From Nitrospirales bacterium (GTDB lineage: Bacteria; Nitrospirota; Nitrospiria; Nitrospirales; UBA8639), in contig OY820905.2 in NCBI GenBank assembly GCA_963555755.3, forward strand, positions 2,112,001 through 2,176,000: a stretch of DNA of 64,000 nt, written 5' to 3'. Position numbers: made by a program. Of this stretch, positions 45,056-57,000 are shown piece after piece. Numbering within the stretch: position 1 is the first letter of the stretch; every line of letters begins with the position of its first letter.

Positions 45056-48000
45056 TGAGTCTTTCCGAAGGGTCTATCCAGCAAGGCCGCAGCCCTTTTG
45101 ACGCGCGGAGCGTACTCTCAGTACGTGAGCACGGCAAAATGGCGAGAACGCCGCTGGCGGCTTTTTTCAACATTCCCTGTCTGGAAGCATTCGTCGATGC
45201 GAGCCGGTGACCGCGGTGGAGCACGCGTGGGCACATCCAGGTGGGCGAGAATCATGACGATCACGGCGGGATCTTCAATGGCCGGGATGAGGGTTAAGGG
45301 GCCTACACAGGGTCGAACTAAATAAGTCAATACTCATGCCTGACCCCATACTTGACCCCTACTCATTTTTCTAGGATCGGGCCAGCACGTCGCTCCATTG
45401 TGGCGTGTGAGGGTGGGAACTGGGCAAAGGGAGCGTGTCGGCTGCAAGTCACAGTTAAGGCGTTGTGGTGGTATCTTCACAGTGAGAATTTGAGAGACTA
45501 GTGTAATCTATTTGCCCATCGATGTTTTCTGCTATACCGTTGTAGCACACATGTGTGTGTTTCCAGCCTTTACTATTCCAACCCGCGACAGTTTTTGAAG
45601 TACCACATATAATGACTGCTCTGGCACTAGTTCCTGCCGGAAAAACATACTCCGCTGTTTCACCGGGCTTTTTATTACCTCTTCTTTTACAGATAAACAC
45701 CCTATTACCACCAGTGTTACCGCAAGGTTCACTGCCCGCACATCCCACTGCCATGAATAACACATCAAATGAAACACCATCAGGGAATCCCACGCCATCT
45801 ATCGTGTTGGTCTCAATAGTGACCTTATACTTGTTGCCACTCCCAGCGATTGAATTAGCTGGTAAAACAGAGATTGCCATCAGTGAAATTCCTAAAATCA
45901 ACATGGATTTTTTAATCATTGTCTGTCCTCCTGTATTGATTGCCCCTTGCTTATCCTGTTTGCCCACCAACGTACGACCTATAGTAGGGTGGCCGTAGAT
46001 ACATGAGCGCAATGATCCCAATCCCCGTTGTAAAGGCCTCGATACGTGGGGCCGGGCACCTTCATGCCGATACCCAATAGGGAAGCGAAAGCCGTCATCG
46101 GGTAAAAGGGACGGTTGAACCGGAATACGAATTCATTCAGATAGGCCGACAGGTGTTGCGTGCTGACGCTATGGTGAGTTCCCATCAGCCAAGTCTTCAG
46201 ATTCGAGAAGGCGATGTGGATCATAGGGAGGTGGATATCGGTTTTCTCGCGATCGCCATTGCGCACCATGGGCTCGTGCGCGTACCCCAATTGTGTCAGA
46301 TTGTCGTAGCCGCCCCATTCGTCGGTGCGCACCATGGCGCCCGTGACTACGCTCTCCTGCACGAACCCCGTGAGCGTTTTGGCCCCGCGGTTTGGCACGA
46401 GACACAAGCGCAACCTTCCTGCGTAAACGGCTCGGTGGGGCTTTTTGCCATCAACGCCGAGCGGCCGAGGGCGAACTTCGATGGCACCAGCAACCATCGA
46501 TTGATGGTGGACGCCACGTCCTTTGCTCTTGGTGCGCCCCCCCACCAGCGTTTCATCCACCTCGACTGGCCAATCTGCGCCAATCCGGTCGGGGTTGGGG
46601 CGAACCATGCCAGCGCGGAGCTTGTGGAGCATCTGGAATGCGGTCTCGTAGCGAGTCAGCCCAAGCTGGCGCTGAAGCTGCACCGCAGACACGCCGGGCG
46701 TTTGCGTCGTCACCAGATACGCGCCCAAAAACCACGCCTGCAAGGGCGTCCTTGTCGCATGCATGACGGTGCCAGCGGTCAGCGCCACATCACTGTGGCA
46801 ATGTCGGCATCGAATCATCCGTGGTCTCGTGACGATGCGCTGCGCCTTGCTGCTCACGCCGCACGTTGGGCACGCAAATCCGTCCGGCCACCGGATGGCC
46901 TCAAGATAGGCCGCACACGCCATTTCGCTGGGAAACATCTGTTGAAACTCAAGCAACGACTGGGGGTGGCGAATTTCCATGACGATCATACCCTACCTAT
47001 TAGCGTGAGGGTGTGTCAACCGGATAAGCAAGGTTTGCCCTATCTTCAACAGCGCACTTCGACCTTTTTATTGTGCCAAACCCGATGGGGTAAGTTTTCA
47101 GGCTTGGTGATTTCTCAATTCCGGGCCTGGTTGGTTTGGCTTTCTCGATCCCCCGGTTTTGACCATTTTCCCTTTACCCCGAATTGCTGGTGTCACCCGT
47201 GACCGATACTTACTGTTCGGCGTACATACGCCAAGAAAACGGGTAAGATTTACTCTGGGTTTGGGCACCAGAGTCCCCAGCCTGGACCAGCTACAGGCCG
47301 CATCCATCCATTACCGAATCGCCATTCGTCCGTCCGCCGGGCCCGGGTGAGAAGGAACAAGCCGTGCGCCCCGATGACCTGGATGCAGTGCCTCAAGCGG
47401 GTGGTTTGCTCGGGTGTAAATATTTTTGGTCTTGCCATTTTTGAGTTCTCTTTTGCTTCAGTTTAAGCGGAAAACTTGGATTGAGAGATGCGGAGTGTAG
47501 GTATAATTAAACCTATTGTCAAGTCCAAGATCTTTCCCAAAATCCGCGATGGATTTTGTCAACAGGACTCCTTTGGCGAAAACCACCTGTTTCATCCACT
47601 AGAGAAGTCGCATGGTCAATGTTCTTGCTGGATCCGAGGCCGCCTCCAAGGGATTCCTTGCCGCACTGGGTGTAACCTGCTCCTTCTGGGCAAACTGCTC
47701 CTTTCATGCTTCCTCTCGCGTCTGATTCCTGCCCTGGCTTATGCCTGGGCAGCTTCCGCACAGCGCGTCCGAATCTCCGCACACACGCCCCAAAACCATT
47801 GCTGCACTTTGAGGATCACCGCGCCGGCATGCCGGACCACGTTGCCCGCCAGCTGATACCGCCGCCAACGGGTTAGGGGTCAGGTTAGGGTCAGGTTAGG
47901 GGTCAGGTTAGGGTAGAGTAGAGCACTGGTGCATACATGGAGCTGCTCTCGAACGCTTCGACGCACGCGTCTACCACGGACCATAGCAGTCAGCACTTCC

Positions 48001-54000: not shown

Positions 54001-57000
54001 CCGTGCGTATGGTTTTCCCATACACGGCTTTCCGATGTTCTTCTTCCAGCGGCATGCGTCTGTCATCAGGCAATAGCCACATTCAGACTTGGCCTTCTGA
54101 GATAGTTTCCTCTGTAGTGTCCTGATCGTGCTCGGGGTGGTTAGCGCAATGGCAATCCCCTGATCCTCCACTCGTCGGAAACGTGAACAAAGTAGGGTCC
54201 CTTCCCTCGGGCCGGGTTGTGTTGTCCCAGGCTCTCCAACGGTACTATGAACCCCTCCGACTCCCACGACGGCCCGCAGCGATTTCGGTATCCCTTATAC
54301 GCCTCAGTTGCTGGTTCTGCGCCAGCACCGTCGCGGGTCTCCCGTCCTGCACGGTGTCTCTTCCGCCACATGCCATCCCTGCTACCCCGGAAGATCCTGA
54401 GGGTGGGTGTTCGTTCTACTCCCTCAAACGGCGGCCTTCCCCTTCTGACCACAGGGTCGGCATCTCCAATTCGTTTACGAGGCTACATCTAGGTTCGCTT
54501 GCGCTACGGCCTGCGGCTTTGCCCATGGGAAACTTCAACCCCTGATTACTCAGACGCTGCTTCCTGGTGCTAGAAAGGTGTACGAACAACTCCTTTCGCG
54601 GGACTTCAACCCGCTAGACACACCGCCGATGACGGCATGCGGTCAAGTCACTTGCTTCATGATAAAGAAAAGGAAAAGGGGTCAGAAAAGGGGTCAGAAA
54701 AGGGGTCAAGTCACTTGCTTCATGATAAAAAAGTAGTTAGACTCTGGTCATGCCTCGACCTCCTCGGATGGAATACGAGCATGCGGTGTATCATGTCATG
54801 AATCGTGGCCGGGCTCGGCACCCGGTGTTTCATGATGCCCGGTACTATCGAGCCTTTCTCGACACGTTGGCCGAGCTGCATACCCGCTTCCAGGGTGTGA
54901 TTCATGCCTATTGCTTGATGGGCAATCACTATCATGTCTTGCTGGAAACTCCCAGGGCCAATCTCAGTCGCATGATGCGCCATCTTAACGGGGTGTATAC
55001 GCAACGGCATAATCGTCTCAAACGTACTGATGGCTCTTTGTTTCGAGGCCGCTATAAAGCCATTTTGGTGGAGCACGATGCCTATTTGCTCCACGTGTCC
55101 CGGTATATCCATCGAAACCCTCTTGACGGCATACGGCCGCTGGTCACGAATTTGTCTGATTATCCCTGGTCGAGCTATCCGACATATATCGGTCAAGCGA
55201 AGCCGGCACCGTGGTTGTGCCGGGAACCGACGTATCGCCTGCTTGGGCATGTGCACCGGTATCGCGGGTATGCTCGCTACGTGCTAGAGGGCAACGATAA
55301 AGAAATCGAGTATTTTTCCCAACGGGGTAATAGGGCGGCCATTATGGGAGGGCAGGAGTTCAAATCTTGGGTCTATGACGAATTACTGCCGGATCTTGAA
55401 GCGGAGGAGAAAGGGCAGGTGATCCAGCCGAGTCTTGCAATCGACACTATGATCACTGGGGTGGCCAAGGCCTATCGCACGACACCAGACCGGCTGACCA
55501 TGGTAGTGAAAGGGCCGCAAAAAGGGAATGAGGCTCGGAAACTGGCGATGTATCTGTGTCAGGAATTAGCGGATGTGAAACTTCAGGACATTGCGCCCTG
55601 CTTCCATCTGCGTCATAGCGGTTCGGTGAGTTTTATCACCCACCAGGTCAGAAAGAAGAAACGAGACGAGAAGGGATTTGCCGCTAGAATGAACGAGGTG
55701 ATTGAAAGTATTCTGAAGCAATCGACTTGACCCCTATTCGACCCCTATTCTTGACCCCTATTCATAGGGCGGCCATTATGGGAGGGCAGGAGTTCAAATC
55801 TTGGGTCTATGACGAATTACTGCCGGATCTTGAAGCGGAGGAGAAAGGGCAGGTGATCCAGCCGAGTCTTGCAATCGACACTATGATCACTGGGGTGGCC
55901 AAGGCCTATCGCACGACACCAGACCGGCTGACCATGGTAGTGAAAGGGCCGCAAAAAGGGAATGGGGCTCGGAAACTGGCGATGTATCTGTGTCAGGAAT
56001 TAGCGGATGTGAAACTTCAGGACATTGCGCCCTGCTTCCATCTGCGTCATAGCGGTTCGGTGAGTTTTATCACCCACCAGGTCAGAAAGAAGAAACGAGA
56101 CGAGAAGGGATTTGCCGCTAGAATGAACGAGGTGATTGAAAGTATTCTGAAGCAATCGACTTGACCCCTATTTGACTTGACCCCTATTTTATTATGTCAT
56201 AAACAATTTGTAACGTTAATTATAGTACAAAACCTATATTGAGAAATCATTTAGCGATCAAAAAATTGATCAAAATTAATTAAAATTAGCCCTAACAAAG
56301 TGAATTTTCTTATTTTTCCGATCTCCACATTTTGTTCGATTCTTAAATAGTTTATAGTTATACCAGTTTTGTTGAGTGGTCATAGTAGAAGTCAGCTAAT
56401 GTTATTTTTATTAACTTTGACATCTTTAGGATTTCTTGGATTTTTGTCTTATGATGTTTTTGCTGAACCTACATTCACACTTGAGTGGGATGGAACTTCA
56501 CAACATGATAATACCGTAAATGTTGGTGACACTATTGCTTGGGAATGGATTGGTCTTCAACATAATTTAGTATGGGATGACGAAACAGGAGTTCCTCTAC
56601 CTGATCCATCGTTTGGATTTCCAGATATCGTTGATGAACCAAATACCTACGCATTTACATTTACTGAACCTGGAGAATACTATTATCACTGTACAATTCA
56701 TTCAGAGCAATCTGGTGTTGTAACTGTTCTACCGTCGCCTATCACACTTGAGTGGGATGGAACTTCACAACATGATAATACCGTAAATGTTGGTGACACT
56801 ATTGCTTGGGAATGGATTGGTCTTCAACATAATTTAGTATGGGATGACGAAACAGGAGTTCCTCTACCTGATCCATCGTTTGGATTTCCAGATATCGTTG
56901 ATGAACCAAATACCTACGCATTTACATTTACTGAACCTGGAGAATACAACTATCACTGTACAGTCCATGAAGAACAATTTGGAGTTGTAATTGTTGAATC

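Follow-up and report, generated by a model that had tools for sequence, protein, structure and literature searches.

A candidate group II intron lineage homing to domain V of other group II introns, with a tandem triple in one host

The window analyzed here is a 64,000-nucleotide stretch of a Nitrospirales genome (contig OY820905.2, C1 below) where one group II intron stands three times head to tail inside another. The locus raises the questions of what the inner intron recognizes in its host and how three copies came to share one landing site. Sequence comparisons suggest that the inner intron homes to domain V (D5) of other group II introns and that the triple arose by re-homing. We give this explanation as a whole a probability of about 0.8.

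Array organization

A tandem triple of a 1,994-nt intron with a 428-aa reverse transcriptase (RT) had been reported in the survey's finding, and three intact copies were located at window positions 53998-48017 (contig position 2,112,001 is window position 1, an offset of 2,112,000, not 2,144,000). Copies A, B, and C lie on the minus strand within one 746-nt ORF-less host intron. Each opens with GTGTG, closes with CCCTAC, and contains an intact ORF, and both junctions between the tandem copies are exact. Rfam Intron_gpII matches across the A/B junction (52032-52149), and each copy has a D1-D4-4 match. The features are as follows.

52005..53998, minus: inner intron copy A, 5'-most; 16 differences from B, 14 from C, and 3 from the copy at C1:2225398
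50011..52004, minus: inner intron copy B; differs from the commonest haplotype at 1 position; Rfam D1-D4-4
48017..50010, minus: inner intron copy C, 3'-most; B-type plus a short A-type patch
52200..53486, minus: RT/maturase ORF of copy A; 428 aa, FADD, without endonuclease domain
50206..51492, minus: RT/maturase ORF of copy B; 428 aa; protein family matches were computed on this copy
48212..49498, minus: RT/maturase ORF of copy C; 428 aa
53778..53783, 51784..51789, and 49790..49795, minus: inner EBS1 GUCCGU, from covariation with the target
53806..53810, 51812..51816, and 49818..49822, minus: inner EBS2 GUAUG, from covariation with the target
53715, 51721, and 49727, minus: inner EBS3, A, intron position 284, from mutual information with the +1 base in 59 introns
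52115..52147, 50121..50153, and 48127..48159, minus: the inner intron's own D5, folded
53999..54640, minus: outer intron 5' part, with domains I-IV, a short RT-start remnant, and D5 minus its last base; Rfam D1-D4-6 at 54375-54607, and alignment
53999..54030, minus: host D5, 32 of 33 nt; its 3' strand is the inner IBS1 (-6..-1) and IBS2 (-13..-9)
47913..48016, minus: outer intron 3' part, with the last base of D5, linker, and D6 with a bulged A at -7
54445..54450, minus: putative host EBS1 GGUCAG, in a predicted hairpin loop and complementary to the YTGACC preceding the host 5' end
54641..54708, minus: host target, 5' side; repeats of TTGACC and TGACCCC, next to the gene of a Y1/REP-associated transposase
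47876..47912, minus: host target, 3' side; CC, then more TGACCC(C) repeats
54750..55730, plus: Y1 (IS200-like/REP-associated) tyrosine transposase whose end repeats contain the host target; Pfam Y1_Tnp above cut-off, NCBIfam REP_Tyr_transpos below that model's cut-off

The outer intron runs from window position 54640 (GCATG) to 47913. A GTGTG at 54623 was rejected as its 5' end, as target restoration and relatives place the end 17 nt upstream. The host target YTGACC^CC was found at 10/10 hosts examined. Alignment with RT-bearing copies shows that one large deletion removed the host ORF.

Judged from its sequence, the inner element belongs to the class F type of group II introns, subgroup IIB, and lacks an endonuclease. 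The copy B protein scores 356.8 bits against TIGR04416 (cut-off 300), and its Pfam content is RVT_1 and GIIM only, with no endonuclease domain. The RNA has the GUGYG 5' end, a D5 with the AGC triad, and a D6 with the bulged A at -7, and covariation supports the EBS1-IBS1, EBS2-IBS2 (-13..-9), and EBS3-IBS3 pairings of subgroup IIB. RT relatives at 67% and 49% identity are listed as F(g2-g5) in PMC8919778. The RT tree places the protein among class F proteins and holds no class A-E references. The inner RT is 49.5% identical to that of a Bacillus thuringiensis F intron and 37% to Ni.ha.I1 (g3), a comparison that included no named g2 or g4 protein; the host-family RTs are 47-49% identical to Ni.ha.I1.

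Landing site and target recognition

The inner intron was originally placed directly 3' of D5, between domains V and VI. That position is off by one base: the insertion point is inside the D5 basal helix, with the base opposite the triad A on one side and the final D5 base on the other. It is 1 base short of the D5/D6 junction, within the last D5 base pair. The inner D5 was folded computationally, and the host D5 was assigned manually in that register. With the insert taken out, D5-D6 reads as it does in the empty host at C1:228422, the precise nesting of a twintron.

At 14 sites the genome contains 13 complete inner copies and 3 partial ones, and all of the previously listed copies were recovered, including seven ORF-less composites and two RT-bearing hosts with the insert. 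The composites are 96-100% identical by BLAST, a wider range than the 98-100% first given. The claim that the intron resides almost only in other introns, always at one point, holds for 13 of the 14 sites, which are D5 sites distributed over three host families; the exception is one ectopic copy (C1:1562261). The copy at C1:1022311-1024304, once counted as another kind of site, is also in a D5, that of a third intron family, split by an insertion sequence. The target is D5 and not the RT catalytic motif used by YADD-homing introns. A YADD-site intron is present separately in the same genome.

The 3' strand of the D5 basal helix (-6..-1) is the pairing partner of EBS1, that of the upper helix (-13..-9) is the partner of EBS2, and the final D5 base (+1) is the partner of EBS3, which puts the insertion point within the closing base pair of D5. 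The EBS1 variant GACCGU occurs within the genome at ACGGTT sites. Across relatives, EBS1 and EBS2 form 192 Watson-Crick pairs with their own targets, compared to 151.6 ± 5.1 after shuffling (0/5,000 as high; 21 distinct pairs), a significance that is overstated because the relatives are not independent. Among 59 introns, no other column has as much mutual information with the +1 base as EBS3, which pairs with it in 92%. An EBS2a pairing was not supported in four cases checked by hand, and folding the EBS region by minimum energy gave no information.

Pairing alone is insufficient to explain the target, since the genome has 35 empty sites that pair equally well and carry T at +1. Two other sites have a mismatch at +1 with EBS3. 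All 14 occupied sites are co-oriented with replication, and C1:228422, the sole empty host sharing the target of two occupied hosts, is counter-oriented; seven empty D5s are co-oriented as well. The GNRA-loop and strand rules considered here were fitted after the fact on the basis of one empty host. The 3' strand of the inner intron's own D5 is a poor pairing partner for the intron's EBS1, and no copy in this genome is inserted there. Self-avoidance through a diverged D5 is no more than a lead: D5-site members average 3.5/6 EBS1 pairs with their own D5 versus 5.7/6 with the target, but members with other targets share the D5 type, and 2 of 79 metagenome members are inserted in clade-type D5s.

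In the proposed mechanism, the ribonucleoprotein would reverse-splice into the lagging-strand template at replication forks. The extra determinant beyond pairing is probably the D5 GNRA loop region (about -20..-14), recognized by the protein or as a hairpin. The ORF-less host would spread alone to YTGACC^CC repeats, starting from empty copies or once splicing has removed its insert, and would most likely be mobilized in trans by an RT of its own family; each new host copy would then be invaded afresh. The host would be functional only if the insert splices first.

Two metatranscriptome runs and two non-RNA runs, all as contigs, were compared with a single-copy composite. No splice or circle joint was found in the RNA contigs, which bridge unspliced junctions. 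A lone joint skipping the insert in the non-RNA runs was rejected as splicing; it has another D5 variant and about single-copy depth, as expected of an empty host in DNA. Insert depth was 12-16 times that of the flanks, which is compatible with 13 copies although such a depth is not a copy number.

Relatives in other genomes and metagenomes

A DNA search of 41 related genomes gave fragments only, with the same nesting in one. Among relatives with enough flank, 24/59 passed a structural D5 test (background 194/177,872 positions, ~0.1%), as did 22/79 metagenome loci (background 42/51,097) that had been selected by the intron 5' end alone. Hand curation gave 30 D5-site loci in 23 genomes and 9 named phyla. 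The covariation and the recurrence of the site in these 23 other genomes support site-specific homing into the D5 region of other introns, and do so more strongly than the survey's finding could. The strict test failed for 35/59 relatives (30 after curation) and 57/79 metagenome loci; about half of the clade uses other targets. Named, cultured carriers are Paraburkholderia phymatum STM815 (plasmid pBPHY02, frameshifted there), Burkholderia sp. OK233, and Cupriavidus; the 67% identical pBPHY02 relative occupies the same D5 position.

These other targets raise the alternative that D5 is one of several sites reached repeatedly by EBS drift in a lineage that is not specialized, because the D5 sequence is conserved and common. 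The D5 label changes 8 times on a quick RT tree, with 4 changes forced by well-supported branches, and 26 members have other targets. The two metagenome members inserted in clade-mates' D5s point the same way, as does a relative whose insertion site is domain III/IV of another intron. However, both main branches of the 66-row clade contain D5 sites, the D5 label is clustered on the tree (8 changes versus 19 when shuffled, 0/500), and the cut falls at the same base in hosts with different D5 types. Drift is a possible reading, but the odds are against it.

Origin of the composites and of the triple

The survey's finding also described a twintron spread as a unit, host and insert being copied together as a 2.74-kb mobile element to seven loci. 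All seven ORF-less hosts are occupied, the assembly has no empty one, their ends are precise at YTGACC^CC, and the most diverged inner copy is in a distinct host haplotype (C1:2542960). The two histories are nonetheless incongruent, and unit spread is unsupported for that reason. Identical hosts (0/745 differences) hold inner copies 16 apart, hosts 42-43 apart hold inner copies 3-4 apart, and one inner haplotype (0-2 differences) is shared by ORF-less hosts, RT-bearing hosts, and the ectopic site. Identical copies at different sites imply recent mobility. The twintron has its D5 split and its D6 displaced by 2 kb, and a retrohoming host RNA would first have to lose the insert. The same argument was made for independent invasion in Thermosynechococcus elongatus, as described in PMC2882425. 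Later gene conversion among inner copies could blur a shared history, a caveat in favor of unit spread, which we nevertheless regard as very unlikely. Full occupancy would also fit a partnership in which the inner RT splices and mobilizes the ORF-less host as well, keeping the pair together. An RT was found upstream of the insert in just 4 of the 24 D5 loci with 2.6 kb upstream, many D5 loci have a domain I motif 600-750 nt upstream, and both T. elongatus twintron partners are mobilized by one intron-encoded protein, again as described in PMC2882425. Against a partnership, identity between the inner and host RTs is only about 36-43% (tblastn matches), 6/13 hosts in the metagenome sample have an RT upstream, and a better EBS match explains the occupancy by itself. 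The genome has six host-family copies with uninterrupted 443-445-aa ORFs. The ORF-less host also retains the beginning of its ORF, the expected binding site of the cognate RT, and a shared RT seems unlikely on balance.

Re-homing at the 5' junction appears to fit the triple best. IBS1 and IBS2 survive an insertion unchanged, which keeps the 5' junction available as a target; the 3' junction of a resident copy was rejected as a site, as it offers only 3/6 EBS1 pairs. The copies represent three haplotypes (A-B 16, A-C 14, and B-C 6 differences). Copy A has A-type sequence between positions 59 and 1963 and its nearest relative is in another host haplotype, and the array's host is identical to a host carrying a B-type copy. 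The order would be C first, B next, and A last, each at the 5' junction, with A from a different donor copy. The triple could instead be an assembly product or a product of recombination (an intron DNA circle or unequal crossing-over). It is the only tandem among all loci surveyed: the tandem junction was found in none of 79 metagenome loci and none of 300 other genomes of the phylum, most without a demonstrated intron. It is also missing from the listings of two DNA runs kept as contigs, which cannot show absence. All 14 copies that extend over EBS3 have A there, which means that re-homing must proceed with an A-G mismatch, and the A-type patch in copy C indicates that conversion or polishing cross-talk has acted. 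These alternatives must account for three distinct haplotypes and two exact junctions, and circle crossover into a resident copy would yield reciprocal chimeras unless it fell within 1-58 or 1964-1994. Repeated homing, left open by the survey's finding, is thus favored by the haplotypes, short of proof, and an assembly or recombination origin is somewhat unlikely.

Discussion

D5 is the one sequence common to all group II introns and therefore a renewable, gene-free landing site wherever introns live. It adds a target class to the RT motif, terminators, attC, and insertion sequences, and an intron that targets it would make its hosts dependent on its own splicing. Published pipelines drop or split nested loci, according to PMC4028801 and PMC8919778, so outer and ORF-less introns are probably undercounted. 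The named, cultured carriers make D5 homing testable. A broader and improbable reading is that a widespread class F lineage acts as an 'intron of introns', which would read D5 by pairing and as a GNRA-capped hairpin at the fork, spare its own copies through a diverged D5, stack by re-homing, and lend its RT to occupied ORF-less introns. If true, it would explain the persistence of many ORF-less bacterial introns and, as nested loci are dropped, why surveys miss such introns.

Introns nested in introns are known, with the RT YADD motif and domains I, IV, and VI as targets. We found no description of a D5 site: a literature search for group II intron homing into D5 returned no paper, although the host column of the Zimmerly database, which has a D6 case, may hold a D5 entry. 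The Euglena psbF group II twintron reportedly has an insertion in domain V. If so, it is an intron within another's D5, as here, but involves degenerate chloroplast introns at one locus with no RT-driven homing lineage. D5 targeting does not appear in the available parts of PMC7049729, PMC5572947, the PMC8643678 supplement, or the class F sources PMC3552965 (Table S2) and PMC8919778 (Table 3). PMC8919778 classes the pBPHY02 relative as F(g2-g5) and gives the abutting D5 an entry of its own, in class D, instead of naming it as the host. The inner intron resembles the class F (g2-g5) introns tabulated in these two sources in size, in an RT-X protein without endonuclease, and in tree position.

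The YADD-homing introns M.a.I5, UA.I3, P.l.I2, and B.th.I3 of B. thuringiensis ATCC 35646 (as described in PMC2504315) and the Methanosarcina arrays (as summarized in PMC4424553) also lack an endonuclease, home to a motif conserved in other group II introns, and build up nested arrays as insertion recurs. They target the codons of the RT active site, whereas the inner intron targets a catalytic RNA domain that ORF-less introns have too. B.t.I4 of Bacteroides thetaiotaomicron, whose host is listed as 'RNA domain 6 of B.t.I3' (PMC3552965 Table S1), is likewise a bacterial intron in the 3' ribozyme domain of another; it differs in being a class D intron in domain VI and a single table entry, with no lineage-wide targeting described in the available part of that source. 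T. elongatus TeI3/TeI4 share many twintrons per genome, independent invasion of dispersed hosts, and ORF-less and ORF-bearing partners, but their inner intron is ORF-less, host-related, and in domain IV (per PMC2882425), whereas the present one is RT-bearing, unrelated to its host, and splits D5. Trichodesmium Tr.e.I7/I8 also combines two unrelated group II introns, the inner in a ribozyme domain. It occupies domain I at one locus with sequential splicing demonstrated, as reported in PMC4649490, and the present case is known from sequence. The closest parallel to the triple is EcKTE56.groEL, for which exact head-to-tail copies by 5'-junction re-homing were obtained experimentally, as described in PMC12584367. 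That IIB1 intron made two copies in the laboratory and its EBS3 U pairs with the first G by U-G wobble, whereas EBS3 is A in this natural triple.

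Array anatomy and D5 occupancy

All elements of the array lie on the minus strand of the window. The survey's finding placed them correctly in window coordinates, and its offset was 32 kb off (the window is C1:2112001–2176000). The host, a 746-nt ORF-less group II intron, is split in domain V (D5) by three copies (A–C, 5' to 3') of an inner group II intron.

From 54640, minus: outer intron 5' part, 642 nt, up to the end of a nearly complete D5
After the host 5' part, minus: inner copies A, B and C, three exact 1,994-nt units
After copy C to 47913, minus: host 3' end, last D5 base and domain VI (D6)

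Rfam identified domain I motifs in the host and every inner copy; copy A also matches at D5/D6. All three inner copies encode a reverse transcriptase (RT)/maturase of 428 aa without an endonuclease. Judged from how the inner intron's D5 folds, with the host read in the same register, the cut lies between the base that faces the triad A and the final D5 base. A ~335-bp repeat adjoins the array (window 47533–47870) and has 11 more genomic BLAST matches (76–98%). Another C1 repeat has an identical 32-nt core, present on both strands at more than 40 places (e.g. 84615, 224995, 2112961).

Across the genome, the inner intron is present at 14 sites, as 13 full copies and 3 partial ones. Of these sites, 13 are D5s belonging to three host families and the other is ectopic. 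Among the listed D5s of other introns, 10 are empty. The D5s of the inner intron itself are unoccupied throughout this genome. Partial copies C1:9684–11164 and C1:1250583–1251094 are probably the halves of one inner copy cut by an insertion sequence at about position 512; their present separation of 1.24 Mb is likely due to rearrangement.

One insertion sequence, which has terminal inverted repeats and encodes a 596-aa ORF, lies inside group II intron D5s in 4/4 copies, with a 9-bp duplication.

C1:775512–777420: insertion sequence copy
C1:1024305–1026938: insertion sequence copy
C1:1251095–1253010: insertion sequence copy (comparison locus L231)
C1:3058591–3060449: insertion sequence copy (comparison locus L232)

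The ORF has no Pfam match and falls in Atlas clusters named 'putative transposase'. Three relatives in two other genomes lack the D5 context, so the preference may be local.

The host intron

The host arose by deletion from a family whose RTs are 443 aa long and whose 5' part is ~93% identical. It inserts at YTGACC^CC in 10/10 copies examined, and its EBS1 loop, as read from sequence, is complementary to this target. At the array, this target lies in repeats at the ends of a Y1 transposase gene. Host relatives likewise begin with a variant of GUGYG and then a short hairpin, which fixes the 5' border that the survey had left open. YTGACCCC motifs number 528 genome-wide. Two near-identical Y1 transposase genes (window 54697–55730 and 61414–62394) encode a DnaA-like C-terminal helix-turn-helix, and a further copy lies near C1:490022. 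In the host-family D5 (window 53999–54030), several copies that moved recently have A in place of the U that faces the catalytic G; the variant with A also matches the inner EBS1 better.

Target recognition

EBS1 (GUCCGU) and EBS2 (GUAUG) pair with the array's host at 11/11 positions (10 Watson-Crick, 1 G-U). For 21 distinct D5-site pairs, introns formed 192 Watson-Crick pairs with their own targets compared to 151.6 ± 5.1 for shuffled targets (0/5,000 shuffles as high), a significance inflated by relatedness among introns. EBS1 alone and EBS2 alone each passed this test. Several kinds of target change (ACGGTT, ACGGAT, ACGGAA, GCCGTT) are each matched by the EBS complement. EBS3 is intron position 284, which shows covariation with the base at +1 (0.47 bits, 92% paired, 59 introns).

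Pairing is insufficient for targeting, because 35 empty genomic sites with T at +1 pair equally well. When GAAA at −20 to −14 is also required, 9 occupied sites remain, together with 1 empty site that is counter-oriented to replication, a GAAA and strand rule fitted after the fact. Occupied sites are co-oriented with replication in 14/14 cases (origin and terminus from GC skew), a bias shared by the hosts; among empty D5s the count is 7/10. This co-orientation agrees with lagging-strand-template insertion, for which PMC8919778 describes a strong bias in class F introns.

D5 sites in relatives

The genome-collection sample held 80 loci, 59 with a 5' end and at least 36 nt of flank. The structural D5 test was passed by 24/59 (background 0.11%); by hand, one pass looks false, and the test overlooked six clear D5s as well as one whose flank is short. 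Curated D5-site loci number 30, in 23 genomes and 9 named phyla. An independent metagenome scan, chosen solely by the intron 5' end, gave 22/79 passes (background 0.08%) from the 80 listed of at least 121 reported stretches. The same D5 junction occurs in a same-genus genome and in P. phymatum pBPHY02, and the remaining clade members have other targets. On a quick RT tree the D5 label appears in both main branches of the 66-row clade, with 8 changes versus 19 when shuffled; D5 targeting may be ancestral with losses or may have been gained repeatedly. D5-site hosts are often ORF-less or remnants, with an upstream RT in 4/24 genome loci and 6/13 metagenome loci. One relative instead interrupts another intron in its domain III/IV region (L035:2950–2986), and two occupy an atypical D5 of their own clade (L182, with matching EBS1, and L184).

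Mobility and origin of the triple

The survey proposed that the twintron spread as a unit. Host and insert differences are incongruent and contradict this. The hosts at C1:1381243 and C1:2225398 have 0 differences over 745 nt and their inserts differ at 16 sites, inserts just 3–4 differences apart occur in hosts 42–43 apart, and one inner haplotype recurs unchanged in two host haplotypes and at the ectopic site. Host spread came first and the invasions were separate, as is argued for T. elongatus twintrons in PMC2882425. Gene conversion among inserts may have affected this pattern. The 428-aa ORF is kept in 11/13 full copies and several copies are identical at different sites, which indicates recent movement. 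Contigs from RNA span the element and run across its junctions in unspliced form, with no spliced joint among those listed.

The array copies differ at 16 (A–B), 14 (A–C) and 6 (B–C) positions. Their host is identical to that at C1:1690457, whose insert differs from B at 1 position and from C at 5; copy A differs at 3 from the insert of another host haplotype. A resident copy's 5' junction retains IBS1 and IBS2, and its 3' junction is a poor target (3/6 EBS1 pairs), making re-homing of C, then B, then A the simplest account. Tandem re-homing has a laboratory precedent (PMC12584367). Against it, the EBS3 A faces G at the re-homing site, the tandem array is unique among all loci in the data, and no sequence reads confirm the triple. 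On balance, we consider assembly by re-homing in this order fairly likely.

Comparison with known introns

The inner intron falls with class F (g2–g5) and is closer to a B. thuringiensis member than to Ni.ha.I1 (g3); the hosts group with g3. Bacterial nested introns are known in domain I (PMC4649490), domain IV (PMC2882425), domain VI (one entry, PMC3552965 Table S1) and an RT motif (PMC2504315). Our literature search, which had gaps, turned up no description of homing into D5. A third group II intron occupies RYADD codons of host RT genes at C1:6426 and C1:801412; the same hosts are parasitised by both a YADD-homing and a D5-homing intron. The inner intron works like the YADD-homing introns described in PMC2504315, yet is not a member. 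D5 is a well-supported new target class for a known behavior, homing into other introns, to which this locus adds a three-part recognition code, strand and loop clues, a naturally occurring triple and evidence that the twintron does not move as a unit.
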